A stretch of 64,000 nt of DNA, taken from positions 64,001 through 128,000 of IMG/VR virus record IMGVR_UViG_3300032234_000392; one strand, written 5' to 3'. Source of the DNA: a virus (Duplodnaviria > Caudoviricetes). The translations under genes were made by a program, and so were the position numbers. Shown in pieces: positions 882-51,282 of this stretch. Every line of letters starts with the position of its first letter. Position 1 is the first letter of the stretch. The notes below the pieces were generated by a model. That model was given only the letters and a program-made list of their open reading frames with translations. It searched no databases and was not told the DNA's origin.

Positions 882-910
882 ATTATAACACAATCACCTC
901 CAGTTGTCAA
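882..910 (-). promoter_or_regulatory. sigma70 promoter, probably giving a leaderless uvsE mRNA
   Basis: TTGACA-17-TATAAT with TG extension; -10 ends 7 nt before the ATG. Confidence 0.75.
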
Positions 911-1694
911 GAACAAATTTATCCTGTACTGCACAAGGATTCGGATCGCCGTGAAAGACAGCCACTGAACATTCTGGATGTACAACTATGTCATCTTTGA
1001 CAGTTTTGAACTGTCGTTTACTGTTTATTACAACTAATTCTTCTCGACTACGAATTTCCCATTTGTAGCTTTGTATCCATTCTCTAGGCCAAAACTTTAG
1101 TTTACTTTGGCACAGTTTCCAAATCCAATCTTGATCTCCCTGCAGTCGTTGTGCATCTGCAGGTTTGGATTTAAATTCTTGATAGATATGGCTTTGAGTT
1201 CCGTGAGTCCATGCCATAACAGAACTGTTGAGATATTTCCAACTTGCATAAAATTTTCTATTAAAGTCATGAATGCCCAAAAACTGATCTTGACAGTAAA
1301 GACCTAACTTGTCTATATTGGAACAGATTACAACATCAAGATCAAAATATAGTATTCTACCTCGCAATGGTAAGTTAGCATCAAACATGTGTACTTTATG
1401 CCACCATCCTCTTTGATAGTTGGCATTTGGTTGATATATAGTTCTTACACCTTCGATAGTGTGTTGGTCGTCAGTAAGGCAGGCAAACTCATAGGGTATG
1501 GTCATATGTCGGCTAACCATATTACGCAGTCGTTCTACATATTCACGGCCATATTTGTTGCCAAATCTCACGCAGAGAACCGTGAGTTTTCCGTCTAACT
1601 CTGGAGAAATATGTTTTTCTGCTTTAGACAGAGCCTTTAGTGCCTTGGCTTCTCTCTTGATTCGTTTACGTTCTTCTTTTGACAAGTCCATCAA
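894..1694 (-). CDS. GT-A fold glycosyltransferase-like protein
   Basis: [33 protein letters not shown], DxD motif [26 protein letters not shown]. Confidence 0.7.
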
Positions 1695-2496
1695 TGGCTA
1701 CCAGCTCTTCTAAAATATTTTTAAGATTATCCAATTTAATCATATTAGGACCATCACTAGGTGCGTTTTCTGGATCTTCGTGAGTTTCCATAAACACCCC
1801 TGCTACACAGCCAGTAGCTACAGCAGCCCTCGCCAAGTAGGGCACCATTTCGCGGTCTCCGCCTGAGACTGATCCCAAGCCTCCAGGCTGTTGTACAGAA
1901 TGTGTTGCATCAAAGACAACGGGATAACCAGTACGTGCCATAATAGGTAGGCTGCGCATATCAACCACAAGATTATTGTATCCATGAGTATATCCTCTTT
2001 CGCATAACATAATTCGTTCGTTTCCGGTTGAAGCAATCTTTGCCGCAACGTTTTTCATATCGTGGGGTGCAAGGAACTGACCTTTTTTCACATTGATTGC
2101 ACACCCAGTGGCACCAGCCGCTAATAATAGATCAGTTTGTCTACATAAGAATGCAGGAATCTGTAATATATCAATTCCTGCATCAGCACAGATCTGTGCT
2201 TGATATGTTTCGTGAATGTCAGTCAGCACTGGAATTCCAAATTCGTGTTTGATTGAATTTAAAATTTTTAAGCCTTCGTCGATACCAATGCCCCTTTGTG
2301 TATTAACACTGCTTCGATTGGCTTTGTCAAAGCTGCTTTTATAGACAAGATCGATATCTAGTTCATCGCAGATTTCTTTAATGCGGCCTGCAGTCTGCTC
2401 AGCATGATCCTGACTTTCAATTTGGCAGGGACCTGCTATAAGAAATATTTTATTAGAGTTGCTGGCAACAACTCGGTTTATTGAAAATGTACGCAT
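1666..2496 (-). CDS. kdsA: 3-deoxy-D-manno-octulosonate 8-phosphate (KDO8P) synthase
   Basis: [64 protein letters not shown]. Confidence 0.96.
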
Positions 2497-2520
2497 ATTA
2501 TTATTTATGCGTATATTCTG

Positions 2521-2970
2521 TTAGACTTCGTAGATTGCGGAGTTAGCACCGTGCTCAGCACATTCAACTCGCACACAATAACACCGATTATTAGTTTTTT
2601 CACGGATCAATTGATCGGCAAAGTTAAAAGCGTGTTCTGCAAACTTTTCTGCACCTACACCATCAAACATTCTAATCTCTGCTAGGCCTAGTGCTTCTAA
2701 TTCTTGGAATTTGGCCAAGTGAGGATCGGCTATATCTAATGCCAACTTGTGATCAAAATGGTCTTCTAGCCATGCCTTTAAGGCTTTAAGTCCACCAAAG
2801 TCTACTGCCCAGTTCTTGTTGTCTAATGAGTCACAACCAAATGTAAACGTAAATGCTAAACTATAACCATGTAGCAAATGACAGTGACTGTGATCTGCAT
2901 TAGGTTGCCGAAATACCGCTGACAGACCAATGTTGTGTCCGTAATGTTTTGTTGAAAGATATTTTGCCAT
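2521..2970 (-). CDS. queD: 6-carboxytetrahydropterin synthase (QueD/PTPS family)
   Basis: SHCHLLHGY, VDFGGLK, FDHK, C-terminal E-H-G-A-N-S-A-I-Y; start taken at MAKYLST after AAAGGAG SD. Confidence 0.88.
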   Translation of the reverse strand: MAKYLSTKHYGHNIGLSAVFRQPNADHSHCHLLHGYSLAFTFTFGCDSLDNKNWAVDFGGLKALKAWLEDHFDHKLALDIADPHLAKFQELEALGLAEIRMFDGVGAEKFAEHAFNFADQLIREKTNNRCYCVRVECAEHGANSAIYEV

Positions 2971-2997
2971 CTCTAGTCTCCTTTGTATCGGTAGCAA

Positions 2998-3047
2998 GTT
3001 TGATGACTGCAGAATTTTTATAGAGGGATGATGCCATAAAGTCCTCT
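2998..3047 (-). promoter_or_regulatory. preQ1-I-like riboswitch aptamer variant upstream of queD
   Basis: AGAGG-ACUUUAUGGCAUCAUC-CCUCU-AUAAAAA; loop AUGGC can pair with downstream GUCAU. Confidence 0.55.
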
Positions 3048-3071
3048 GTGCCGCTGTGTGTCTATTGTAAT

Positions 3072-3100
3072 ATTATATTACCTTTGTATTTATAATGCAA
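3072..3100 (-). promoter_or_regulatory. sigma70 promoter for the queD leader
   Basis: TTGCAT-17-TATAAT. Confidence 0.6.
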
Positions 3101-3686
3101 CAAATTTTACATTATTTTTCTGCCATTCTTTGGGCATAGCCCAGGCAGCGTGATTGATTACAGTAAATTGGCTTTGTGGATAATGTTTGAATATTAGTTC
3201 GGTGTGATATACCCAATATGAATAATCTACTGCTTGCGCATCTGTTTTGGCATAGTTTGGGGTGCCTTTGTAGAGATTGTTCACCCTATCATGTGTGGGA
3301 TATAGATCAAAACCCACTAGAGTAATTTCTTTAAATCCCAAATATGCTGCTAATAAAATAGCATAACAGCCGCTGCCCCAGTGATCGGGATGATCTCTTT
3401 TGGATTCGCCGATGATAGGAATCGGGGGAAGATGTTGTATTCGTTTATTTTTTAGTATTTTACGGAAATAATGATACCAACTGTCTCTGACATAGATCAG
3501 CGTGTCGCCAATATTGGGATTAACAATCGCTTCAGCAACCATTCTGCGATCACAGCAGATTAAATGATCGATTTTAATATCTCTATGTATGCCATTACAG
3601 CCGATTAAGGTATGTGTTGATCGATATGATTCTAGATTAACACCGCGTCTACTTTCGCCGTTGCCGACAACTACAGCCTGAGACAT
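3090..3686 (-). CDS. DUF115/CstII-like Rossmann protein, putative glycosyltransferase
   Basis: VVVGNGESR, LIGCNG, HLICCD, GSG..A..LA..LGFKEITLVGFD. Confidence 0.55.
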   Translation of the reverse strand: MSQAVVVGNGESRRGVNLESYRSTHTLIGCNGIHRDIKIDHLICCDRRMVAEAIVNPNIGDTLIYVRDSWYHYFRKILKNKRIQHLPPIPIIGESKRDHPDHWGSGCYAILLAAYLGFKEITLVGFDLYPTHDRVNNLYKGTPNYAKTDAQAVDYSYWVYHTELIFKHYPQSQFTVINHAAWAMPKEWQKNNVKFVAL

Positions 3687-4525
3687 TATTCAATCCTACC
3701 GAAACCGCTCCATAGGCCTGGATTGCCCGCTCTGGTACAGACCCAACCAATAAAACGTCCAGGTTGGGGACTGTTGTTCCATAGAATATCACCTTCGTTG
3801 AATGCTCCACTAGTAGGTGCTTCGCTGCCGCTGAGATGTAGTTTGTCGTTGAACTTAATAGCACCGCTGACATGAAGGTCAGTCCTTGGATCAATGGATG
3901 AAACGTTTACACCTAACGATCCTACTATCTTAACCTTTGTAGGTCCAAAATTTGGATTGCCTAGAGTAATATCACCTCCAGCACCAATGGTAAGTCTTGC
4001 GGTGTTGTCTGTGACCAGTTCTAGATCAGCTGAGTTGAATGTGCCCATGCTGCCCACATTAGGTTCGCTGGCTCCAAATACCAACTCAATATTTTGATCT
4101 AGGATACTCAGTGTGGCATTAGGTTGATCAGTGCCTATGCCTAGTCTATCTGTAGTAGCATCGTATACTAGATATTGATTAACACTTAGTCCGCCATCTA
4201 CAATAAGACCTTTTAAACGTCCTACTTCACGTAGATTACTTTTTGTAATTGTTGATCCTAATTCGGTATCGTCGATAATCTTAACATTATTAACAGATAT
4301 ACCTTTGCCTTTGGCAAGATCGATAGTTTCAGACACAAAAAATCTACCAGGGTTGGCTGCATATATTAACTGTTTGTTATAACCATCACCTGACCAAATC
4401 AATCCCTTGCCGGGAATATCACCTTTAAAGTTGATAATTGGCACTTCTGCTACATTAACATCTTGACCATTTTCTAAAACTTCTCTGAGAGCGGTTAATA
4501 ATGATTCTATTTTTTGATCAGCCAT
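3686..4525 (-). CDS. virion structural / fibre-like protein (paralog of 4525-5643)
   Basis: RLGIGTDQPNATL repeat type; C-terminal PTSGAFNEGDILWN...GWVCTRAGNPGLW module. Confidence 0.55.
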   Translation of the reverse strand: MADQKIESLLTALREVLENGQDVNVAEVPIINFKGDIPGKGLIWSGDGYNKQLIYAANPGRFFVSETIDLAKGKGISVNNVKIIDDTELGSTITKSNLREVGRLKGLIVDGGLSVNQYLVYDATTDRLGIGTDQPNATLSILDQNIELVFGASEPNVGSMGTFNSADLELVTDNTARLTIGAGGDITLGNPNFGPTKVKIVGSLGVNVSSIDPRTDLHVSGAIKFNDKLHLSGSEAPTSGAFNEGDILWNNSPQPGRFIGWVCTRAGNPGLWSGFGRIE

Positions 4526-5643
4526 TATGAATTTCCAATTTTACCAAACGGTTCCCATAGTCCAGGAGTTCCTGCCTGAACACAAACCCAACCTACATAT
4601 CGATTAATCATCGGTTCTGAGTTCCAAACTATGTCACCTTGGTTATATGATCCTGCTGTAGGATAACTACGGTCTACTCGCTGTAGTCTATTACCAAACT
4701 TCACAGCGCCAGCAACATGTAGATCCACCTCTGGATCAGGGGTTGACACCCTTACTGACAGTTTGCCATGGACAGATACCTGTACAGGAGGTAGCTTAGG
4801 ATTACCTAGCTGAATATTACCGCCTGCTGCTATAATAATTCTAGCAGAGTTATCTGTGACAATGTCTAGACTATGACTAGCATGTGTTCCGATATATCCG
4901 CGAACACTGTCTTTGGTTCCAACAACAACTTCAATACCATCTTCGCAGACGCTAAGAGCTGCATTGGGACTGTCTGTTCCTAGTCCAAGTCTATTAGTAC
5001 TAGAGTAAAATGTTAGATACTGACCAATGCTGACATCACCGTCTACAATTAATCCGTTTAATCTACCAACTTCACGCAAATTACTTTTTGTAATTGTTGG
5101 ACCTAATTCTTTTTCGTCAATTAACTTAATATTGTTAACAGTAATACTCTTACCACGAGCAAAGTCTAAGTTTTCTGAAACAAAAAATCTGTCTGGATTG
5201 GCAGCAAAAATAAACTGTTTGGTATTACCTTGCCCTGCCCAAAGTAATCCCTTTCCCTCTAGATTTTTACTAGAAAAAACAATCGGAATATCTTTTTCAA
5301 AAGTAATATCAGCTTTAATTTCTTTAACTTCTAATACATCAGTTTTAATCACAGACGCAGTAACAGTACCAGCTACACCTAGATCTTGAATATGATCTAC
5401 AGTAAGTGATGTAATATGTACACCGTCATCTTTTAACAATAACTGCTGTGTCGATGCTTGGTCAGCAATGCCTGTACTGGCAAAATTTTGTATTTTACCG
5501 CCATTAATATGATCTCCACTTAGCGATCTAAATGGAATTTTTTTAATAAATTCTTTAGGACTAGTTAAAAAACTATCCGGGTCTTGGCCTTTTAGCGCAT
5601 CTGCAAGTGCAGCCAATGCTTGATCAATATTGGTTTTGTTCAT
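4525..5643 (-). CDS. virion structural / fibre-like protein (paralog of 3686-4525)
   Basis: Shares ITKSNLREVGRL, RLGLGTDSPNA, PTAGSYNQGDIVWN...GWVCVQAGTPGLW; likely start MNKTNID. Confidence 0.55.
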   Translation of the reverse strand: MNKTNIDQALAALADALKGQDPDSFLTSPKEFIKKIPFRSLSGDHINGGKIQNFASTGIADQASTQQLLLKDDGVHITSLTVDHIQDLGVAGTVTASVIKTDVLEVKEIKADITFEKDIPIVFSSKNLEGKGLLWAGQGNTKQFIFAANPDRFFVSENLDFARGKSITVNNIKLIDEKELGPTITKSNLREVGRLNGLIVDGDVSIGQYLTFYSSTNRLGLGTDSPNAALSVCEDGIEVVVGTKDSVRGYIGTHASHSLDIVTDNSARIIIAAGGNIQLGNPKLPPVQVSVHGKLSVRVSTPDPEVDLHVAGAVKFGNRLQRVDRSYPTAGSYNQGDIVWNSEPMINRYVGWVCVQAGTPGLWEPFGKIGNS

Positions 5644-5665
5644 GATAAGGTATTTATCAATAAAC

Positions 5666-5691
5666 AAAAAGCGGGCATCGAGCCCGCTTTT
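5666..5691 (-). terminator. intrinsic terminator (possibly bidirectional)
   Basis: AAAAAGCGGGC-ATCGA-GCCCGCTTTT hairpin just downstream of 5709-6896. Confidence 0.8.
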
Positions 5692-5708: not shown

Positions 5709-6896
5709 TTATTGTATTCTAAGCAGTATAACTTCTTCGTTAATACGTCCGTTTAATTTAATATCTACGGCTTTAATATCATCTAAGAACTTACGCAACT
5801 GTACTTTACCAGCAGCCTTAAACTCTTTTAACTGCTCTTCGGGCTTGCGCAGTGTCTTTTGTACGCTGAGATTTTCATTAAATCCGATAATTGAGGTACC
5901 TTTGACACTGAGTTCTAGATATTCTGCTGCCACATACTTGCCTAATTTGCGTGACTTAGTGTTATAAACCCACAGTTCTTTAGCACCAACAATGTCTGCA
6001 GGATTAATAGATACTAGCTTTAACGGCTCGTTAGACTTTTGATACTTGAGTTTGGCAATGATCTTCTCTACAGGCTTGGCTTTCTTAGCACGTGGAGCAC
6101 GATTGACCTTGGCTTCTTGTGCCAGCATATCGCAGGCTGACAGAATTTCATTGTAAAACGCAGTGATCTTTTTCAACTGTGCCTTAGACAAATGACTGTA
6201 GCCTTCTTTTAATTGCTCACATTCACCTTCGGCAACTTCGAGATACTCGTTATATTGACGTTGATAGATGTCTTTGATCATACGAGCATGAGCGGCCTTG
6301 GCCTGCTTGCCTTTGAGCAAGTTCAATACCTTAAATGCTTTTGGATCGAATGTTTCGGGATCTGCACTAAACAACTCAATAGCATCTTCTAGTTCATCTG
6401 TCATACGAGCAGCCGCTTCACGTAAGCGTTCTTGAATACTAGGCTGTGCTACCACAGGCTTAGCCGCTTCGATGGCTTTGGTTTCTTCATCATCGATATC
6501 GTCTTTACCTTCTGATACAACTTTGGCAATAGCTTCTTTGAGCCATTTAGCAGTATCACGACCATCATTAAAGTCCGCACGTACCGCAGGCATACCTTTT
6601 AGTAGGCAGGCAGCAATAGCACCCATTGTGGTACCGCAACGATTGTCTTTGGTCTTTTTAAACTCAGCGACTTCGGCTTTGGTATAACCGTTAGCAGTCA
6701 TCCAGTTGATGACTTTTGGCTTGAGCTCTTTATTAGATGACTCTAAGCGATACCAAGTCATAGACTGATGAAAGTGTCGTAGGAACTGATTTGTGTCCAT
6801 TTGGTCAGCATTATCCCATTTTGGACTTAGATCTTTGCCACGGTTCTCGCGAGCCTTGGTCAAATGTTTGTTTGCTTTGAGTTTTGTAGCTGCCAT
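5709..6896 (-). CDS. phage hypothetical protein (395 aa, Lys-rich)
   Basis: Long ORF with GGAG SD and upstream consensus promoter. Confidence 0.75.
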   Translation of the reverse strand: MAATKLKANKHLTKARENRGKDLSPKWDNADQMDTNQFLRHFHQSMTWYRLESSNKELKPKVINWMTANGYTKAEVAEFKKTKDNRCGTTMGAIAACLLKGMPAVRADFNDGRDTAKWLKEAIAKVVSEGKDDIDDEETKAIEAAKPVVAQPSIQERLREAAARMTDELEDAIELFSADPETFDPKAFKVLNLLKGKQAKAAHARMIKDIYQRQYNEYLEVAEGECEQLKEGYSHLSKAQLKKITAFYNEILSACDMLAQEAKVNRAPRAKKAKPVEKIIAKLKYQKSNEPLKLVSINPADIVGAKELWVYNTKSRKLGKYVAAEYLELSVKGTSIIGFNENLSVQKTLRKPEEQLKEFKAAGKVQLRKFLDDIKAVDIKLNGRINEEVILLRIQ

Positions 6897-6928
6897 ATGC
6901 CTGCTCCTATTCGTTAAACAATACTTAT

Positions 6929-6957
6929 ATTATAACACCATTTTAGGAGTTTGTCAA
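6929..6957 (-). promoter_or_regulatory. sigma70 promoter
   Basis: TTGACA-17-TATAAT with TG extension. Confidence 0.75.
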
Positions 6958-7145
6958 CTCTGCTCAAAGCGTTTGATTTCTTCCAAATCGCCAACTTCGT
7001 TTTCCTGGAACACCACAACTGTTAGAAAGCCCAATTCCAAAGTAGCCTCTGCAATTTCAAGTGCCTGTGTTCGACTAGGAGTAGTGTCGATTAGTTCTTC
7101 ATGCCCATCTTCTTCCTGAGCCCAAATTTCATATAGTTCAAACAT
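6954..7145 (-). CDS. hypothetical protein
   Basis: Acidic small ORF in a tightly packed operon. Confidence 0.6.
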   Translation of the reverse strand: MFELYEIWAQEEDGHEELIDTTPSRTQALEIAEATLELGFLTVVVFQENEVGDLEEIKRFEQS

Positions 7146-7153
7146 AGTTTTAC

Positions 7154-7555
7154 TTAGTTGTTATCGGGCCATTCACTAGGAATCCACCCAATTTTTTTAA
7201 GATCTTCTTTAATTTCATCAGTGACCGTACCTTCTGGAACATAACCACGTTTATCGAATCGTGCTTTGGCTTCTTCATCGGTTTCATCATCAAAAGCAGC
7301 AAACCCGCCCATACCAGAACAGTAGTAATCCATGTAATCTTCGCTACCGCCCCTAAGCTGAGCTACAACCCCTCCAGCTGAACGCCAAGAACACGTCCAA
7401 AAATCATCCTTGAGTACAGGTAGCACTTCTAATTTTTGCCAACGCATATTACAAAATGCTGCGTATAAATTTTGGGCATACTGTTTGTCTGACCGAATCT
7501 TCTTTAGAATTTCGTCTGAACGATAAAGGTCTTCGACTAGATCAGGACTGCTCAT
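7154..7555 (-). CDS. hypothetical protein
   Basis: ORF with YAAFCNMRW and WTCSWRSAGG; overlaps neighbour. Confidence 0.7.
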   Translation of the reverse strand: MSSPDLVEDLYRSDEILKKIRSDKQYAQNLYAAFCNMRWQKLEVLPVLKDDFWTCSWRSAGGVVAQLRGGSEDYMDYYCSGMGGFAAFDDETDEEAKARFDKRGYVPEGTVTDEIKEDLKKIGWIPSEWPDNN

Positions 7556-31984: not shown

Positions 31985-32797
31985 ATGATAAAAGGCATTA
32001 ACAATCAACCGTATTTGGATATGGAATCATATTTGGATATGGAACAATTTGATAAACTGCAACCCGAAATACTCAAGGGATTTGCATTGGCACGGATGTA
32101 TGCCAAAGAAGGTACCTGGATGAAACCAGGCTTTGATCAAACCCGCGGCAGTTATATTTGGAATTGGAAACCAATCTATCGTGCAATAGATGAATTTCTT
32201 GCCTTGCCAGACACTGACCCTATTAAACAAGCAGGTTGGGACTTATGGTGTAATGCCAAGGACTATCATACTCGTAATCTATTTACTAGATATGTTAAAA
32301 TGGCCATGGGTGCCTATGATCCGTACATTTATTATTTTTTATGGGAAGAAGGATCGTGGGATGATCGCACAGCAGCTCGTAAATTAACAGACGAAGCACA
32401 GTATTTCCCTAATGTAGTCAAATGGGTTGAACAGACAATTACTAGTGGAATATTTGAACACATCGGCCGAGTAATATTTTTTCACTGTGAAGCGGATGGC
32501 ATGCCATTCGAACATAGAGATTTAGATGCTAACAACGGAGTGTTTGAAAATGATTTCTATACTCCGCATAGAAACGAATTTATACACATTCGCCCTAACA
32601 CTAAAAAAGGTTTTTATATCTGGGATCCCGATACCAAGACCAAAGTCTATCTCAATACCAAAGCTGCTTGGTGGAATGATCAAGACTGGCACGGTGGCGA
32701 TCAAATAAAAGAACAAAGTTATAGTCTAAGAATTGATGGCAAATTTACCGACGAGTTCCGTAAAAAATTAAACATCGATCATCTGGAGAATTATTAA
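31985..32797 (+). CDS. Fe/2OG-type oxygenase-like protein
   Basis: FEHRD...WNDQDWHGG...SLRIDG. Confidence 0.6.
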   Translation: MIKGINNQPYLDMESYLDMEQFDKLQPEILKGFALARMYAKEGTWMKPGFDQTRGSYIWNWKPIYRAIDEFLALPDTDPIKQAGWDLWCNAKDYHTRNLFTRYVKMAMGAYDPYIYYFLWEEGSWDDRTAARKLTDEAQYFPNVVKWVEQTITSGIFEHIGRVIFFHCEADGMPFEHRDLDANNGVFENDFYTPHRNEFIHIRPNTKKGFYIWDPDTKTKVYLNTKAAWWNDQDWHGGDQIKEQSYSLRIDGKFTDEFRKKLNIDHLENY

Positions 32798-34200
32798 TGA
32801 GTAAAGTATTTTGGTTGCAACCAGAAGACTCTAAGATTGGCGGTGTACAGAAGTTAATTGCTGACCGTGCTGGATCACCTAGCTTTTGTGTTATTCCGTG
32901 GATACACATGGCCACTCGTCCCAATGGCGATGCTAGACTGTGTTGTGTGACCAACGCATCGGGTGCAGCCACTGGAGACCATCAAGTGGGATTGGTCAAA
33001 AAAGAAAATGGTCGTCCTGCAAACTTTGGTGTTGATACTCCACTAAGTGCGTGGAACAACGAGTATATGCGTGATGTGCGTACCACAATGCTTGAAGGAA
33101 AAATACCTGCTAGTTGTACTAAATGTTTTGAAGAAGAATCCAACGGTGTTGCCAGCAAACGTATTTGGGAAGCCTATGACTGGACAAACAACGGGCTGGA
33201 TATAGAAAAATTAATTAGCGATACTGAAGCAGATGGCACAGTTCCTCCTGTTATACGATATCTAGATCTTAGACTAGGACATACCTGCAACTTGAAATGC
33301 GTAATGTGCAGTCCACACGACAGCAGTCGCTGGGTGCAAGACTACGAGCCAATGATGGCTAAAACCAAAAGTCAAATAGTCATTAATCAGATCAACTGGG
33401 ATAAAAGTACATTCAACAATTACTGGTATGAAAAGCCAGAATTTTGGGACGATGTATTTGAGCAGATTCCACACATTGAACAACTGTATTTTGCTGGCGG
33501 CGAACCGCTGATGATCAAGGAACACAAACGCTTCCTAGAAGAAATCATCAGACGTGGCTACAATCATAGAATAACACTACGCTATAATTCTAATGGTGTT
33601 TTGCTGGATGAAGAAATGATTGCTATATGGACACAGTTCAAGAAAGTAAAATATTCTGTAAGCGTAGATGCAGTCGGTGATCGCAACTGGTATATTCGTT
33701 ATCCTACCAAGTGGGATGAAATCATACAAGTTCTTGAAAGATTAGACAACACTCCAGACAACATCCAAACCAGCATTGAGTGTGCTGTGCAGGCCATTAA
33801 TGCAGAACACTTGCCAGACTTTGCTCGTTGGATGATTGAGCAGAATTATAAAAAAGTTAACAAGCACTATCTAGGTGATTATCAGGCAGGTGGCGGAATA
33901 TTCAGTATGCACCTATTGTTCATTCCTACTTTCTTAAGTGCTAGAGTATTAACCCGAGCACAGAAAGATCGTGTGCGTGTGAAGTTTGCTGAATTCAAAC
34001 AATGGCTATGGGACAACTACACACAAGATCCTGCATTCTGGCACGACAATCCGTATGGCTGGAAACGCTGGGAAGGAATCCTAAAGTTTATTGATGCAGA
34101 AGATCACAGCCATATGATGCCAGACTTTATTGAATACTTTGAAAATTTAGATAGTATTCGTAATACTAATTTCAAAGCGACATTTCCTGAACTAGAATGA
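32797..34200 (+). CDS. radical SAM protein with N-terminal SPASM/Twitch-like domain
   Basis: FCVIPW, LCC, CTKC, CNLKCVMC, FAGGEP. Confidence 0.9.
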   Translation: MSKVFWLQPEDSKIGGVQKLIADRAGSPSFCVIPWIHMATRPNGDARLCCVTNASGAATGDHQVGLVKKENGRPANFGVDTPLSAWNNEYMRDVRTTMLEGKIPASCTKCFEEESNGVASKRIWEAYDWTNNGLDIEKLISDTEADGTVPPVIRYLDLRLGHTCNLKCVMCSPHDSSRWVQDYEPMMAKTKSQIVINQINWDKSTFNNYWYEKPEFWDDVFEQIPHIEQLYFAGGEPLMIKEHKRFLEEIIRRGYNHRITLRYNSNGVLLDEEMIAIWTQFKKVKYSVSVDAVGDRNWYIRYPTKWDEIIQVLERLDNTPDNIQTSIECAVQAINAEHLPDFARWMIEQNYKKVNKHYLGDYQAGGGIFSMHLLFIPTFLSARVLTRAQKDRVRVKFAEFKQWLWDNYTQDPAFWHDNPYGWKRWEGILKFIDAEDHSHMMPDFIEYFENLDSIRNTNFKATFPELE

Positions 34201-35351
34201 AACATTATTGTCCGCTACCTTGGGTAAATTTATATGCTGAAGTTGATGGCTTTGAGCCCTGCTGTAATTGGAAACGATTGCCCGGAGATCAAATTGCTCA
34301 AGATGCACACGAAGGATTTCATGGAATTAAAATACAGCAAGTACGACAAGACATGCTGGACGGAAAATCTATACCCAACTGTGAATACTGCTATAACGAT
34401 GAAAGCATAGGTGCCAAATCATTTAGACTTAGTGCGATTGAACGCTATGGTATTGTAAATGAACCTGCTATTGAATGTCTTGACATTGTTTTTGACAATG
34501 TCTGCAATTTGAAATGTCGTGGCTGCAACAGCAGTGCCAGTCATCTTTGGCGTAGTGATGAAATTGAACTGTATGGCGAGCCGTTGGTTAAAGACAAATA
34601 TACTAAAAATTTGTCTTGGAATACAACTGATCTTTCAAACTTAAAAAGCATATCTATATCGGGTGGAGAACCATTTGTTAGTAAAGATTGTGAAACATTT
34701 TTACAAACTCTAACAGATCAACAACTAATAAAAAATATAAGATTAACTTTTGCTACAAACTGCACAATTATTCCGACTGCCGCTGTACATAAAGCACTAG
34801 TTGATTGTGACGATCTACACATGATATTAAGTATCGATGGCATAGGATCACTAAATGAATATTTTCGCAGTCCGTCGGTGTGGGACCAATGTGTAGAAGT
34901 GATGAAATACTTTGACAGTCTTATTGATCTACGCAAGGATAAACAAACACTTATTAGTGTAAGAAGCACAGTATACATTTATAATGTTAATAAACTAAAA
35001 GACATTGAAGTGTTCTTTCAGCAAAACTTTCCACGCTTTGAAACTACTAAAAGAAACATCAGTGTTGAGCCTACAATACTAGCCATTAAAAATATGCCTA
35101 AAGAGTTGAAAGATCTTGTAAGACCTGTGGTAGAAAGTTATGGCCAATCATACAGCGAAGTATTAAACATGCTGAATCAACCCGGGGAAGACCTATTTGA
35201 TCAATTTTTATTATTTCATAACAAATTAGATTCTTTAAGAAAAGAACAGTTAGGCAGTGCTAACCAACTGTTAGCAGACTATATAGCTCAGCATGAATCA
35301 AAATATAAGGGCTACTTAAACGGAAAAAAAATATTCCCATGCATTACATAG
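34197..35351 (+). CDS. radical SAM protein with N-terminal SPASM/Twitch-like domain
   Basis: YCPLPW, PCC, CEYC, CNLKCRGC, SGGEP. Confidence 0.9.
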   Translation: MKHYCPLPWVNLYAEVDGFEPCCNWKRLPGDQIAQDAHEGFHGIKIQQVRQDMLDGKSIPNCEYCYNDESIGAKSFRLSAIERYGIVNEPAIECLDIVFDNVCNLKCRGCNSSASHLWRSDEIELYGEPLVKDKYTKNLSWNTTDLSNLKSISISGGEPFVSKDCETFLQTLTDQQLIKNIRLTFATNCTIIPTAAVHKALVDCDDLHMILSIDGIGSLNEYFRSPSVWDQCVEVMKYFDSLIDLRKDKQTLISVRSTVYIYNVNKLKDIEVFFQQNFPRFETTKRNISVEPTILAIKNMPKELKDLVRPVVESYGQSYSEVLNMLNQPGEDLFDQFLLFHNKLDSLRKEQLGSANQLLADYIAQHESKYKGYLNGKKIFPCIT

Positions 35352-47074: not shown

Positions 47075-47149
47075 TGGCCCGGCTGCCAGGACTCGAACCT
47101 GGATCAATAGCTTAGAAGGCTACTGTACTATCCCTTGTACTACAGCCAG
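47075..47149 (-). tRNA. tRNA-Arg(TCT)
   Basis: Cloverleaf, anticodon arm GTAGC-CTTCTAA-GCTAT, encoded CCA; promoter TTGACG-17-TATAAT at 47158-47186. Confidence 0.92.
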
Positions 47150-47163
47150 TTAATTTTATTATA

Positions 47164-47742
47164 CTATAGAACGTATTCTACGTCAACCGCTAAGATAAAT
47201 CTATAATCGTGACTTTGCACGATACCCGGACGATGCCATTGGTTGCTAGGATATATTACCCAGTTGCCGTCTGTGGGTCGAACAAAAAACTTACCATCTC
47301 CGTCAACACCGTTTGGTGCCATTTCTGTGCCACAGTAGTCTCGGTCTTTGACATCCTTAGGAATGTGCAGATAAAATACTCCGCTCATCATTTTAGCATT
47401 AGGATTTTGTGGATGCCAGTGATTATGCCAAAGATTATCACGGTTTTCGGCACCCTCAAGATTGGTCATAAAACTCCATGCCATCATGTTTGATACTCTA
47501 ACTTCACGACCTAGATACATAAACACACTCATAAGAAAACTCATACGGTACTTTAACCATACGGATTCAGTTCTTGCGAAAATATTTTCTTTAGTTTGAA
47601 ACTTAGGAGAGTTGGTAAAATAATTACCTTCACTGACAATATTACGAATGATTCTGCAGGCTTCTTGATTGTCTTGTTCTGTAATTACTGAACTAAAATC
47701 AAACTTACGAAATACTGCATCTTGATCAATTACTGTTAACAT
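47164..47742 (-). CDS. putative Fe/2OG oxygenase
   Basis: WHNH, SGVFYL, IYPS..WHRP...RFILA. Confidence 0.65.
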   Translation of the reverse strand: MLTVIDQDAVFRKFDFSSVITEQDNQEACRIIRNIVSEGNYFTNSPKFQTKENIFARTESVWLKYRMSFLMSVFMYLGREVRVSNMMAWSFMTNLEGAENRDNLWHNHWHPQNPNAKMMSGVFYLHIPKDVKDRDYCGTEMAPNGVDGDGKFFVRPTDGNWVIYPSNQWHRPGIVQSHDYRFILAVDVEYVL

Positions 47743-47750
47743 TGTGTCCT

Positions 47751-47824
47751 TGGAGCGGGATAGGAGAATCGAACTCCTAACCGAAGATTGGAAATCTGCT
47801 GTTTTACCATTAAACTAATCCCGC
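47751..47824 (-). tRNA. tRNA-Gly(TCC)
   Basis: GCGGGAT acceptor, loop TTTCCAA, TCCA end. Confidence 0.92.
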
Positions 47825-47834
47825 ATAAAACTAT

Positions 47835-48017
47835 TTACTCATCCTCTTCTGGCGGTACAGCCAAAGGTGATGTTGAAGGCTTTTTCTTAGACCATTGACT
47901 GTAGCTGGCGCCTTCTGCTCGACCACTAACACCATATTCACATTGTGTGATCTTTCCACCGTTGGCTAAAAACTCTGCCACCGCAGCATCTACTTCAGCT
48001 TGATCATTTTTACTCAT
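47835..48017 (-). CDS. SutA-like RNA polymerase-binding small protein
   Basis: AVAEFLANGGKITQC..G.S resembles the SutA RNAP-binding helix. Confidence 0.45.
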   Translation of the reverse strand: MSKNDQAEVDAAVAEFLANGGKITQCEYGVSGRAEGASYSQWSKKKPSTSPLAVPPEEDE

Positions 48018-48036
48018 GTTTACCTTTTGTTATAAT

Positions 48037-48110
48037 TGGTTGCGGGACCCGGAATCGAACCAGGAACTACAGCTTATGAGACTGTCGAGATACCGTTTCT
48101 CTATCCCGCG
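48037..48110 (-). tRNA. tRNA-Met(CAT), initiator-type acceptor
   Basis: CGCGGGA/TCCCGCA-ACCA with C1:A72 mismatch; loop CTCATAA. Confidence 0.9.
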
Positions 48111-48117
48111 ATTGTTC

Positions 48118-48693
48118 TTACAGTAAGCCTTCTGCTGTTAGTGTTGCTACAGTATCATCACCGAGCGGAATCTCAGTTTTGATATTCAACTCAAGGATTT
48201 CGTCGTTGAGTTTTTGTTTCTGCTTCTTGAGATTTAGGATCTCAGTTTTAGCTTGTGCAATCTGTTCTTTGCTTAAAATACCTGTGCTAACAGTATCACT
48301 ATAACCGTAAAGACTGCGACGATTATTGTCACCTTTGTCGTTTTTCATCTTTTCCAACTTGCCTTTGATTACTTCTAGTGAAGTAATTTCTGTGCCTCCG
48401 GCCAACTGCTCTAACTGACCAATACGCTTGTCAATAAACGCCGCCTTGGCCAATGCTGTGTCAATACCGCTGGCTGCATTAGCAGTGCCTACTAGGGCTC
48501 GGATATTGTATAGAGCCATAGTCAAGTTCTGCCTACGGCCATCATTTACAATCAGTTCATTGTTGGCCTTACTGAGTGTGTCCTCAACATTTTGAAACTC
48601 GTTAATCTCAACTGTGAGGTCAACTCGAATATTTTTTACTGTTTCGTTGATGCTGTTTTGTACAGCATTTGCTTTACGAAGGGTAATGTTCAT
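48118..48693 (-). CDS. coiled-coil hypothetical protein (weakly DIP1984-like)
   Basis: MNITLRKAN...IR..VG.AN...LNDEILELNIKTEI. Confidence 0.65.
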   Translation of the reverse strand: MNITLRKANAVQNSINETVKNIRVDLTVEINEFQNVEDTLSKANNELIVNDGRRQNLTMALYNIRALVGTANAASGIDTALAKAAFIDKRIGQLEQLAGGTEITSLEVIKGKLEKMKNDKGDNNRRSLYGYSDTVSTGILSKEQIAQAKTEILNLKKQKQKLNDEILELNIKTEIPLGDDTVATLTAEGLL

Positions 48694-48905
48694 TTACGTT
48701 TTCCTACTAGTGTTTTTAGATAATCTTCTTTAGTATAATGTCCGTCTTCTATTTCTTTTAATGCTGACACTACAGGGCCATGTCCAGGTTCTGCCTTTGT
48801 AGGAGAACCACGTCTAATTTCTCTAGCACGTTGACTAGCAACTAATACTAGATCAAATAATCCACCTGCTGCGATTGCTGCTTTTTGCGATGTAATCCTG
48901 GCCAT
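48690..48905 (-). CDS. rpoZ: RNA polymerase omega subunit homolog
   Basis: MARIT...FDLVLVASQRAREI...VVSALKEI. Confidence 0.85.
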   Translation of the reverse strand: MARITSQKAAIAAGGLFDLVLVASQRAREIRRGSPTKAEPGHGPVVSALKEIEDGHYTKEDYLKTLVGKRK

Positions 48906-48927
48906 GTCTAATCCTTTAAGTTATAAG

Positions 48928-49190
48928 TGACGGTTTGGTAAAAGGTCAAGCAATAGACCGGACAATGAACAACGAAAGAATTATAGTCTTTCTTTGACAA
49001 TGTGCAAATAACAATACACAGAGGTTCATATATTTCCGATTAACAAATGACATTCTATTAGGGATCGGCTCACATAAACACGGTCCAATTTCAAGTTGGA
49101 TTGTAAGTTTGGAGTAAGCATGAAGCTTAAACCTGTGTGTCTATCCTCGTCTACCTTTTACTTCACCGGTTCAGTATTGCTACCGAACAA
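48928..49190 (-). ncRNA. candidate structured RNA / long 5' leader of rpoZ
   Basis: 5' GCAA-tetraloop hairpin, 9-bp long-range helix GTAAAAGGT/ACCTTTTAC, further nested helices; starts at promoter 49195-49223. Confidence 0.5.
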
Positions 49191-49194
49191 AACT

Positions 49195-49223
49195 ATTATA
49201 ACACTATTTTGCGTCTGTGTCAA
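49195..49223 (-). promoter_or_regulatory. sigma70 promoter
   Basis: TTGACA-17-TATAAT with TG extension. Confidence 0.8.
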
Positions 49224-49239
49224 GACTTTTTGGTATTAT

Positions 49240-49315
49240 TGGCTCCGATTCCTGGATTCGAACCAGGCTTCACGGATTAACAGTCCGCCGCCTTCACCTA
49301 GATTGCTCAATCGGA
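49240..49315 (-). tRNA. tRNA-Asn(GTT)
   Basis: GCGGA-CTGTTAA-TCCGT, GCCA end. Confidence 0.92.
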
Positions 49316-49322
49316 ATTATTT

Positions 49323-49404
49323 TGGTGCCCCCGGGGTGAATCGAACACCCTTTTCTTTCGAGCCTGATTACAAATCAGGTGCAATCCCACTATGCGACAG
49401 GGGC
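49323..49404 (-). tRNA. tRNA-Thr(TGT) with enlarged variable region
   Basis: CCTGA-TTTGTAA-TCAGG; G1-C72 and C2-G71; variable region CTCGAAAGAAAA. Confidence 0.85.
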
Positions 49405-49412
49405 ATACTTCT

Positions 49413-49610
49413 TTACTCTGCTACTGTTTCTTCTACTACCGCAGGAGCAACATAACCTAATCGTGTTAGACGACTGTTGATTTTAGCAATAAGTTTTTTC
49501 TTACTGGATTTTTCTCGAGCATCTAACAACTGTTTAATATTTAATGAAACTACCTTGATCTCCCCTGCCTTTGTGAAGCCAGGTTTCTTACGTTGTAAAT
49601 TTTTTGCCAT
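49413..49610 (-). CDS. small basic hypothetical protein
   Basis: GAGGA SD; sits between tRNAs. Confidence 0.6.
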   Translation of the reverse strand: MAKNLQRKKPGFTKAGEIKVVSLNIKQLLDAREKSSKKKLIAKINSRLTRLGYVAPAVVEETVAE

Positions 49611-49629
49611 ACTATCCTCTTATGTTATT

Positions 49630-49705
49630 TGGTGGAGGTTAGGAGATTCGAACTCCTCGCCTATTGCTTGCAAAGCAATTGCTCTACCAAATGAGCTAAA
49701 CCCCC
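49630..49705 (-). tRNA. tRNA-Ala(TGC)
   Basis: G3:U70 pair, ATTGC-TTTGCAA-GCAAT. Confidence 0.95.
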
Positions 49706-49711
49706 AAATAC

Positions 49712-49885
49712 TTAACCTTTGTTGCTGTCTTTTTGTCGCGGTGCTCTTGACGGTACTGCCGCAGCTAATTCTGCTTGAATCATTGAGCGACGCCATGAGT
49801 CACGTTGATCTTTGTCTTTCCATAGTCCTAGTGCTAGACTGCGTTTTGCCTGTTTACTTAATTTAAATGTTGCATTTGCTTTCAT
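49712..49885 (-). CDS. small basic hypothetical protein (57 aa)
   Basis: Hand translation MKANATFKLSKQAKRSL...WRRSMIQAEL...KG; GAGGA SD. Confidence 0.6.
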   Translation of the reverse strand: MKANATFKLSKQAKRSLALGLWKDKDQRDSWRRSMIQAELAAAVPSRAPRQKDSNKG

Positions 49886-49903
49886 AATTTCCTCTCAGTT
49901 AAA

Positions 49904-49996
49904 TGGCGGAGCATGTTGGATTCGAACCAACGGTCCAGGTTATCCCCAGACTCTTTCTTAGCAGGAAAGTGCCTTAAGCCTCTCGGCCAATGCTCC
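49904..49996 (-). tRNA. tRNA-Ser(GCT)
   Basis: CTTTC-CTGCTAA-GAAAG, long variable arm, GCCA end. Confidence 0.95.
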
Positions 49997-50161
49997 ATTA
50001 GTTGATAGTACTCGCCGTCTATGACAACGTGTCTATTTAGGAGTCCTGCGCTAACAGTTCCAAAGCATCTAACAACAGTTATATCAGACTTCGCACCATG
50101 CCAGTGGATGTCGTGTAGCGTATGCGTCCATACGCGATACCTGCCGAGTGCTATCAACTAA
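49997..50161 (-). ncRNA. candidate ncRNA closed by a 20-bp terminal stem
   Basis: Inverted repeat 49995-50014 / 50145-50164 with 1 mismatch; internal hairpin GCGTATG-GACG-CATACGC. Confidence 0.5.
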
Positions 50162-50244
50162 TGGTGCCCCAGGACGGACTCGAACCGTCACGCTTGCGCA
50201 CTGGCTTCTAAGACCAGCGTGTCTACCAATTCCACCACCAGGGC
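50162..50244 (-). tRNA. tRNA-Leu(TAG)
   Basis: CTGGT-CTTAGAA-GCCAG, class II variable arm. Confidence 0.95.
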
Positions 50245-50266
50245 ATATTTCTTTCTTACAAAGTAT

Positions 50267-50295
50267 ATTATATAGCCTTTCATCTACTATGTCAA
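50267..50295 (-). promoter_or_regulatory. sigma70 promoter inside the tRNA array
   Basis: TTGACA-17-TATAAT. Confidence 0.8.
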
Positions 50296-50304
50296 CACTT
50301 ATTT

Positions 50305-50396
50305 TGGTACCAGCGGAGGGAATCGAACCCTCTCAAGAACGCTAATCTGGCGCTAAAAGTCTTATAAGGACTCTCTGACTACCAAGTCTCACTGGC
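50305..50396 (-). tRNA. non-canonical tRNA, anticodon TAT (nominally Ile)
   Basis: Acceptor GCCAGTG/CGCTGGT-ACCA, D arm GACT-TGGT-AGTC, stem GAGAGTC-CTTATAA-GACTTTT, long variable arm. Confidence 0.75.
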
Positions 50397-50402
50397 ATTG
50401 AT

Positions 50403-50477
50403 TGGCCGGTCCGGAGAGATTCGAACTCCCGACAGCTGGTTTCGAAGACCAGAACTCTTCCACTGAGCTACGGACCG
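50403..50477 (-). tRNA. tRNA-Arg(TCG)
   Basis: CTGGT-CTTCGAA-ACCAG, GCCA end. Confidence 0.92.
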
Positions 50478-50478
50478 A

Positions 50479-50568
50479 TGGCGGAAGCGGTGAGATTCGA
50501 ACTCACGGTGCCTTGCGACACGACAGTTTTCAAGACTGCTGCCTTAAACCAGACTCAGCCACACTTCC
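50479..50568 (-). tRNA. tRNA-Ser(TGA)
   Basis: GCAGT-CTTGAAA-ACTGT, long variable arm. Confidence 0.95.
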
Positions 50569-50575
50569 TTATTTT

Positions 50576-50658
50576 TGGTACCCCAGACGGGAGTCGAACC
50601 CGCAACTAGTCTGTCTCTTGAACAGATGCGTCTACCTAGTATTTTGCGCCACTGGGGC
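50576..50658 (-). tRNA. atypical tRNA-Leu (AAG, or CAA in an alternative register)
   Basis: TCTGT-TCAAGAG-ACAGA; enlarged D loop, short variable region, A73. Confidence 0.65.
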
Positions 50659-50664
50659 ATAGCT

Positions 50665-50738
50665 TGGAGCGGGTAGCGAGAATCGAACTCGCGAATAAAC
50701 CTTGGCAAGGTTTCAGGTTACCATTACATCATACCCGC
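50665..50738 (-). tRNA. tRNA-Gly(GCC)
   Basis: AAACC-TTGCCAA-GGTTT, TCCA end. Confidence 0.93.
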
Positions 50739-50744
50739 ATTGTT

Positions 50745-50822
50745 TGGAGTGAAGGGTCGGATTCGAACCGACGGCTTTAGAGTTTTGCAGACTCTTGCAT
50801 TGGGCCTCTCTGCCACCTTCAC
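50745..50822 (-). tRNA. tRNA-Cys(GCA)
   Basis: AGAGT-CTGCAAA-ACTCT, U73. Confidence 0.93.
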
Positions 50823-50824
50823 GT

Positions 50825-50898
50825 TGGCGAATCTCCAGGGAATCGAACCCCGATCTGCGGTTTTGGAGACCGATGTAATGCCATTATACCAGAGACTC
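50825..50898 (-). tRNA. tRNA-Trp(CCA)
   Basis: TCGGT-CTCCAAA-ACCGC, G73. Confidence 0.9.
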
Positions 50899-50902
50899 AT
50901 AT

Positions 50903-50977
50903 TGGTACACCTAAGGAGAATCGAACTCCTCTTCCCGCCGTGAAAGGGCGGTGTCCTAACCGATAGACGATAGGTGC
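50903..50977 (-). tRNA. tRNA-Glu(TTC)
   Basis: CCGCC-CTTTCAC-GGCGG. Confidence 0.95.
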
Positions 50978-50985
50978 ATAAAACT

Positions 50986-51062
50986 TGGCGGAGTAGACGG
51001 GACTCGAACCCGCGACCCTCGGCGTGACAGGCCGATATTCTAACCAACTGAACTACCACTCC
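50986..51062 (-). tRNA. tRNA-Asp(GTC)
   Basis: TCGGC-CTGTCAC-GCCGA. Confidence 0.95.
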
Positions 51063-51070
51063 ATACAACT

Positions 51071-51099
51071 ATTATAACAGCAAATGACGCTGCTGTCAA
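51071..51099 (-). promoter_or_regulatory. sigma70 promoter inside the tRNA array
   Basis: TTGACA-17-TATAAT with TG extension. Confidence 0.8.
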
Positions 51100-51106
51100 C
51101 CTTTTT

Positions 51107-51191
51107 TGGTGCGACTGGCCAGAATCGAACTGGCATGGATTGCTCCGCAAGATTTTAAGTCTTGTGTGTCTACCGATTTCACCACAGTCGC
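51107..51191 (-). tRNA. tRNA-Leu(TAA)
   Basis: CAAGA-CTTAAAA-TCTTG, class II variable arm. Confidence 0.95.
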
Positions 51192-51197
51192 AAATTC

Positions 51198-51282
51198 TGG
51201 TGGAGATGATAAGAATCGAACTTATTCACCCGAAGGAACAGATTTACAGTCTGCCGCCACTCTCCAACTTAGCCGCATCTCC
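51198..51282 (-). tRNA. tRNA-Tyr(GTA)
   Basis: GCAGA-CTGTAAA-TCTGT, variable arm with TTCG loop. Confidence 0.95.

Follow-up and report, generated by a model that had tools for sequence, protein, structure and literature searches.

The window analysed here is a stretch of 64,000 nucleotides (bases 64001-128000) from an uncultured jumbo phage whose IMG/VR virus record is 163 kb long and rated 46% complete; related phage records are 340-357 kb long and 96-100% complete. It holds a gene for a 149-residue protein of the 6-pyruvoyl-tetrahydropterin synthase (PTPS) family (2521..2970, minus strand, ATG at 2970), which a preliminary description had called a phage queD. The family assignment stands, as profile searches match the protein to PF01242 (E 6e-14) and to phrog_2389, 'QueD-like 6-pyruvoyl-tetrahydropterin synthase' (E 2e-40), but its score of 35.6 bits against the NCBIfam QueD model TIGR03367 is below the cut-off of 89.25, and CxxxHGY takes the place of the CxxxHGH motif. 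Its nearest cultured homologues, at 46-55% identity, are the QueD proteins of Synechococcus phage BUCT-ZZ01, BcepGomr and Iggy. QueE and FolE are encoded beside QueD in all three of these phages, and Iggy also has QueC and DpdA, its cluster running QueE-QueC-QueD-FolE-DpdA.

The genes around the queD leader lie on the minus strand. The next gene, kdsA-like (DAHP_synth_1 family, PF00793 E 8e-74; 1666..2496, minus strand), is probably co-transcribed with the QueD-like gene. A terminator-like hairpin of eight pairs with a T-rich tail (2490-2513, minus strand) sits between the QueD-like stop and the kdsA start, overlapping the kdsA start codon. A 266-aa open reading frame follows kdsA (894-1694, minus strand), and upstream of the leader is a 198-aa open reading frame (3090-3686, minus strand) with a GNGES motif near its N-terminus, assigned to phrog_30607, function unknown; neither has a Pfam or NCBIfam match. 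Elsewhere in the window are two paralogous fibre-like open reading frames (3686-5667), two adjacent radical SAM proteins of phrog_14086 (32797-35351, plus strand), the second with a weak match to a 'QueE-like radical SAM domain', and 17 tRNA genes clustered at 47078-51282, all on the minus strand and all above the Rfam gathering score. These tRNAs were the only matches in a gathering-threshold Rfam scan of the whole window.

The leader of the QueD-like gene had been described as a promoter followed by about 95 nt containing a variant of the class I preQ1 (preQ1-I) riboswitch, and every letter quoted for it is in place on the minus strand. The putative sigma-70-type promoter (3072..3100, minus strand) comprises TTGCAT at 3100-3095, a 17-nt spacer and TATAAT at 3077-3072, and its -35 hexamer shares letters with the stop codon that ends the upstream 198-aa frame. 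The two hexamers are thus present at the spacing given, but the -35 hexamer matches TTGACA at just three of six positions, for which reason a promoter scan passed over the site. The leader measures about 95 nt provided that the start of transcription is some 7 nt beyond the -10 element. Among 118 distinct leaders of relatives, 30 have a stronger TTGACA-like/TATAAT pair, mostly ending 7 nt before the first helix (P1) of the element described below, and 61 have TAAATA within 25 nt upstream of P1. The spacer of the promoter also contains TATAAATA (3094-3087, minus strand); as a T4-type late promoter this sequence was rejected, because its two occurrences in the window, against 6.7 expected, show no enrichment. 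The Shine-Dalgarno (SD) sequence AAAGGAG, read directly, lies at 2984-2978 on the minus strand, ahead of the AUG at 2970. A terminator scan found no terminator in the queD leader.

At the 5' end of this leader is an element of about 45 nt that takes the form of an H-type pseudoknot with a 5-bp P1, a long two-part P2, an L2 of 2-3 nt and a 10-nt L3; all coordinates that follow are on the minus strand. The P1 5' strand, AGAGG (3043..3047), pairs with CCUCU (3022..3026). The 16-nt loop between them, ACUUUAUGGCAUCAUC (3042-3027, read directly), holds L1, ACUUU (3038..3042; family consensus N-C-U-U/C), the P2 5' strand (3029..3037) and L2, UC (3027..3028), whose C directly precedes the P1 3' strand. 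The P2 5' strand is in turn composed of P2b AUGGC (3037-3033), an internal loop AU (3032-3031) and P2a CA (3030-3029), and its letters AUGGCA are a copy of the start region AUGGCA. Right after CCUCU, AUAAAAA begins at 3021 and opens the A-rich L3, AUAAAAAUUC (3012..3021; family consensus W-U-A-Y-A-A-A-Y-U-C), which leads into the P2 3' or switching strand (3003..3011), made up of UG (3011-3010), an internal loop CA (3009-3008) and GUCAU (3007-3003). Across the family, P2 consists of a variable P2b of 3-7 bp, a near-invariant U-C mismatch and a 2-bp P2a (CA/UG). The longer pseudoknot suggested earlier is borne out for AUGGC/GUCAU; its proposed UUU/AAA extension is neither conserved nor compensated, since AAA occurs in one type of expression platform only (type A, below) and L1 changes from CUUU to CUCU with no matching change. 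The SD does lie outside P2, as had been noticed, 18 nt beyond it. A plain minimum free energy (MFE) fold of the leader (z = -0.32) is uninformative, because plain folding cannot see pseudoknots.

A search with the QueD-like protein found its family in more than 596 viral (IMG/VR) stretches, and the leaders of the 80 loci retrieved from them share one common motif. When 60 distinct leaders are aligned with MAFFT, P1 pairing reaches 99%, and four of its five pairs have changed on both sides (AU/UA; GC/CG/AU/UA; CG/AU/UA), as in the variants AGAGG/CCUCU, AGCGG/CCGCU, AGUGG/CCACU, AGUCG/CGACU, ACCGG/CCGGU, AUCGG/CCGAU and UGCGG/CCGCA. None of 500 shuffles of this alignment reached as high a covariation, and slid controls were 38-42% paired. 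The closing G-C of P1 is invariant in these 60 sequences and in all 97 distinct rows of a covariance-model alignment, on which the P1 pair counts agree with those of the 60 leaders. The covariance model, built with P1 only, recovered the motif at 44-70 bits in 80 further contigs, which came from a gene-independent pattern scan and had not been used in building it.

Because one misplaced gap leaves P2b only 53-56% paired in the MAFFT and model alignments, its pairs were counted in 118 distinct leaders with the invariant UCA and UGC as anchors and the offsets from them kept fixed. Counted in this way, positions 1-4 are 83% paired, against 51% in shuffled sets (maximum 59% in 1000 shuffles) and 27-44% in slid ones, with three or four Watson-Crick types per position and 28 distinct helices; a simple swap control for P2b gave no discrimination. 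The U-C mismatch between P2b and P2a is kept in 116 of the 118 leaders. P2a is 100% paired, and its covariation has as its sole basis a change from CA/UG to CG/CG in three related sequences. Unpaired positions are conserved as well: the C and U of L1 are invariant in the 60-sequence alignment, and the C before the P1 3' strand never varies in the MAFFT alignment, a result independent of the parser, L2 being UC in 91 of the 118 leaders, CC in 15 and AC in 4. In three contigs (L075, L083 and L086) a 4-bp P1 is accompanied by a shorter L3 (CUAAUUC), as would be expected if L3 spans the P1 groove.

The conservation upstream of homologous queD genes, seen in 118 distinct leaders, and the covariation in both P1 and P2 agree with what the preliminary description had anticipated, with some of the counts reflecting shared descent, as most relatives are close (QueD 87-95% identical). 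Covarying helices that interleave indicate RNA structure; a DNA operator would not be expected to show such interleaved complementarity. The comparison of leader sequences thus strongly supports a real, conserved, structured RNA, far beyond chance.

The strict motif pattern matches more than 120 IMG/VR stretches. By the covariance model, each phage genome (340-357 kb) has one copy, placed before the QueD-like operon, with two exceptions. The first, L011, has identical copies at 2131-2186 and 2928-2983, 800 nt apart; the second of these precedes the QueD-like gene and the first precedes a 236-aa protein without a Pfam match, whose family also comes first after the motif in L215. The other exception is L160, in which a degenerate copy precedes a methyltransferase. 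In a few contigs a cupin, a Methyltransf_9 protein, an unknown protein of about 240-243 aa or a canonical QueD comes first, and the QueD-like gene always follows. For 94 of the 95 motifs with enough downstream DNA, the next 4.5 kb downstream contain a QueD-like gene on the same strand, and the same interval also holds a 271-aa protein without a Pfam match (32 of 95), a QueE-like protein (22) or KdsA (10). Directly after the motif of L214 is a canonical QueD (CxxxHGH, TIGR03367 80 bits; 6750-7172, minus strand), followed by the QueD-like gene (6234-6746, minus strand); this side-by-side arrangement suggests that the two may not be redundant.

Outside these contigs we see little sign of the element. 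The strict pattern, run over one genome from each of 185,579 prokaryotic species, gave 37 matches where a rough by-hand estimate expects about 33 by chance, and divergent cellular versions could be missed by so strict a pattern. Good model scores were confined to L125 and L148, both short contigs of metagenome-assembled genomes with the same phage gene, and the matches in Idiomarina, Anaerolineae and Saccharibacteria were set aside, as they look like coding sequence and lack P1 or P2. A blastn search of 1.4 kb against GenBank phages gave no match, no cultured phage was seen with the element, and no description of this motif was found in the literature searched. Among RNA runs the only match was one lake metatranscriptome, containing 4% of the words searched for.

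What pathway these genes serve can be approached through their company. FolE and a QueE-like radical SAM enzyme are encoded in all five phage records examined, and a xanthine/guanine-type phosphoribosyltransferase in three of the five. The cluster of QueE-like enzyme, phosphoribosyltransferase and FolE lies away from the QueD-like gene in G000, where it is outside the window and about 51 kb upstream (G000:C1:12538-16083, minus strand), and flanks the motif in G001 and G003. The Pfam models for QueC and TGT had no match in the five phage records, full-length QueC was not found in 20 records, which gave partial PP-loop or C-terminal QueC-like matches only, and TGT/DpdA was not found in the phages examined. 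Because the phage encodes FolE together with a QueE-like enzyme, a 7-deazapurine or pterin context is reasonable. The earlier link to 7-deazaguanine synthesis is upheld to that extent, but DNA or tRNA modification finds no support, full QueC and TGT/DpdA being absent from the records searched. By inference, the pathway may end in a derivative of 7-carboxy-7-deazaguanine that is formed at the nucleotide level.

The P2 3' strand has a second possible partner. In the expression platform of this window, type A (2966..3007, minus strand), the start codon is covered by a helix of GUCAUC (3007-3002) and GAUGGC (2971-2966), and the inner hairpin of the predicted fold covers the SD. The MFE of this platform is -10.1 kcal/mol, or -6.2 with the P2 3' strand blocked, and blocking raises the accessibility of the ribosome-binding site (RBS) from 0.37 to 0.47. 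Among the 118 leaders one conserved aptamer is joined to three platform designs: an SD hairpin, CCUAUG/CAUAGG, that overlaps the last two P2 letters (58 leaders, with some 8 more as UCUAUG variants), the long-range helix with the start codon found in this window (33 leaders), and a CAUUG/CAAUGG(C) hairpin (15-16 leaders). In one leader the SD hairpin carries a compensatory CCUAUA/UAUAGG change. In type B leaders (e.g. L008:2960-2990) the SD-hairpin loop, UGCUAUAAU, is a perfect extended -10 element, a possible internal promoter bypassing the aptamer.

When the platforms are folded without constraint, the RBS window (-14..+7) is paired with at least two letters from the P2 3' strand in 105 of 114 leaders. 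With that strand blocked the RBS becomes more accessible in 70 leaders and less so in 1, a modest mean change from 0.44 to 0.56. Blocking costs the sequestering fold a mean of 4.4 kcal/mol, compared with about -5.8 for the P2 duplex, so the knotted and sequestered states should be roughly balanced. Since the P2 3' strand also pairs with the SD or start codon, formation of the knot should turn translation on, in contrast to every preQ1 riboswitch known; in other words, competition between that strand and the RBS-sequestering helix implies activation, and not feedback repression. These thermodynamic models of short segments support a translational ON switch in which the P2 3' strand would pair either with the aptamer 5' strand or with the SD/start-codon region, and a ligand that stabilises the knot would free the RBS and allow the QueD-like protein, and the genes behind it, to be translated.

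We consider it most likely that this H-type pseudoknot, a cis-acting RNA some 45 nt long, is the aptamer of an undescribed, phage-restricted riboswitch. The locus shows the features general to riboswitches, namely a conserved leader aptamer, variable platforms, mutually exclusive pairing and a single pathway. What favours this reading is that the unpaired letters are nearly invariant, as they are in ligand pockets, that promoters lie directly upstream of P1, that both interleaved helices covary, that one aptamer is joined to three platforms, and that the element is tied to one pathway. Few phage-carried riboswitches are known to us, and none that is restricted to phages.

A less probable reading, which we nevertheless weigh seriously, is that the pseudoknot binds a protein or acts independently of any ligand, as a repressor or activator operator, as a constitutive tuner of RBS exposure or mRNA stability, or as a temperature responder. 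Leader pseudoknots serve protein autoregulation in phage mRNAs, T4 gene 32 being the precedent, and an element restricted to one phage lineage could be of that kind; covariation, moreover, proves structure and not the binding of a small molecule. Against this, very strong conservation of unpaired letters, together with a conserved U-C mismatch, in no more than 45 nt of RNA typifies pockets for small molecules, the element is tied only to a metabolic operon at one copy per 340-357 kb genome, and mutually exclusive pairing has been kept across three platform designs.

The comparison with preQ1-I riboswitches needs more care. These fall into types I-III, with examples including B. subtilis queC, T. 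tengcongensis, C. antarcticum and E. coli (PMC11625349). Their hallmarks are an H-type knot with a conserved G-C pair as its floor, an L1 with a U, contacts from an A-rich L3 and gene-off regulation, and a specificity cytosine before the P1 3' strand is strictly conserved, as UC in type I and AC in types II and III (PMC11625349). The phage motif has in common with them a small H-type pseudoknot, a P1 of 5 bp with a conserved G-C as its closing pair, and a place in the leader of a gene of the queuosine/7-deazaguanine pathway. As in type I, a C preceded by U stands immediately 5' of the P1 3' strand, so that by sequence the invariant phage C occupies the position of the specificity cytosine, and an A-rich L3 interrupted by a pyrimidine follows P1. 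The P1 and A-rich tail had been taken as those of preQ1-I, and fold, G-C pair, C and A-rich loop are indeed shared, but the RF00522 model fails to recognise the motif. The identity of AGAGG/CCUCU with a Bacillus example can be discounted as a coincidence of lineage, since the commonest P1 is AGCGG/CCGCU (78 of 118 leaders).

The differences are substantial. The first letter of L1 is A, C or U, where preQ1-I has a ligand-contacting U; P2 has 7-10 positions with a U-C mismatch and an extra CA/UG helix, compared with a short P2 of 3-4 bp; P2a takes up positions corresponding to L2 and the final part of L3 in preQ1-I; and L2 is 2-3 nt long in place of 4-6 unpaired nucleotides. PreQ1-I turns genes off by having the SD within the P2 3' strand or by forming a terminator on binding, whereas the phage motif has its SD beyond P2 and is wired in a way that implies ON. 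The phage motif also differs in having been found only in uncultured phage contigs. Searching with the Rfam PreQ1 model, as had been suggested, gave no RF00522 match at E<=10 in the region 2900-3200, nor at the motif in any of six phage records (the phage's own and five related ones), where only matches of 9-16 bits were found, all away from the motif; the gathering threshold is 39 bits, and control genomes gave one match over it. A weak match inside the que cluster of G002 was rejected, as it looks like coding sequence.

Could the element still be a divergent but true preQ1-I riboswitch, in which bound preQ1 or preQ0 represses queD by feedback from the end product? The shared H-type fold, G-C floor pair, invariant C (UC) and A-rich L3, in front of a que-pathway gene, lean that way. 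We judge this quite improbable, given the silence of RF00522 at the motif at E<=10 in all six records, a variable nucleotide after P1, a P2 twice as long with an added P2a, and a knot that competes with RBS sequestration while the SD stays outside P2; with no full QueC found, the phages may not make preQ0 themselves. The covariance-model failure, the variable L1 letter, the longer two-part P2 and the opposite wiring are our reasons for not filing the motif as a preQ1-I member. The phage motif, then, is not a catalogued preQ1-I riboswitch, but it works like a preQ1-I-type scaffold and may be descended from one.

Chance similarity, or a coding or DNA-level element such as an operator or a short upstream frame from the P2 AUG, is very improbable: a mechanical 45-aa open reading frame (3037-2900, minus strand) does start at AUGGCA in P2, with AGAGG as a conceivable SD, but most relatives have P1 AGCGG and a P2b without AUG (GGCG, GACGC and others), so the frame is not conserved, and the two interleaved helices carry compensatory changes.

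Other RNA families offer partial parallels to the riboswitch that we favour. An Rfam search of the leader at E<=10 returned just four chance matches, to unrelated eukaryotic and viral families. PreQ1-II (RF01054), SAM-II, SAM-V, guanidine-III and fluoride riboswitches are likewise compact pseudoknots with loop-helix contacts and translational control through access to the RBS, but the loop consensus and gene association of other H-type pseudoknot riboswitches differ from those of the phage motif. Translational ON control by strand competition is found in the adenine add, guanidine-I and ZTP riboswitches, where, as proposed here, the switching strand is common to the aptamer and the RBS-sequestering helix. 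Those have other folds and ligands, and, unlike them, the phage motif has a P2 5' strand that copies the start-codon region (AUGGCA).

As to what is sensed, the invariant C suggests, by analogy with preQ1-I, a ligand with a guanine-like face, and on the same analogy we infer a guanine-like purine, a 7-deazapurine or a pterin. ON logic makes a precursor or supply signal more sensible than an end product, and candidate ligands would include guanine or a guanine nucleotide, dihydroneopterin triphosphate, and a folate or pterin. We know of no characterised precedent among preQ1 riboswitches for activation of the first pathway enzyme by a guanine-like ligand. A riboswitch with ON logic and a guanine-like ligand, the latter a prediction, nonetheless seems to us the probable identity of the element. 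More tentatively, we propose, as possible rather than probable, a new class of riboswitch confined to uncultured lake phages, mostly jumbo phages, that would sense a guanine-like precursor or pterin and activate translation of a QueD-like/QueE-like pathway lacking QueC and a transglycosylase; in such a class the pathway may make a nucleotide derived from 7-carboxy-7-deazaguanine by way of the phage phosphoribosyltransferase.

The element is abundant, its gene family being present in more than 596 IMG/VR stretches, and at about 45 nt it is small enough for direct biochemical and structural work. It would offer a handle on an uncharacterised phage pathway of FolE, QueD, QueE and phosphoribosyltransferase without QueC or DpdA, and an orthogonal ON switch this tiny would serve as a tool. 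It looks like a rebuilt preQ1-I fold in which P2 is longer and the logic is inverted, and as such it would show a minimal aptamer scaffold evolving new wiring and perhaps a new ligand.
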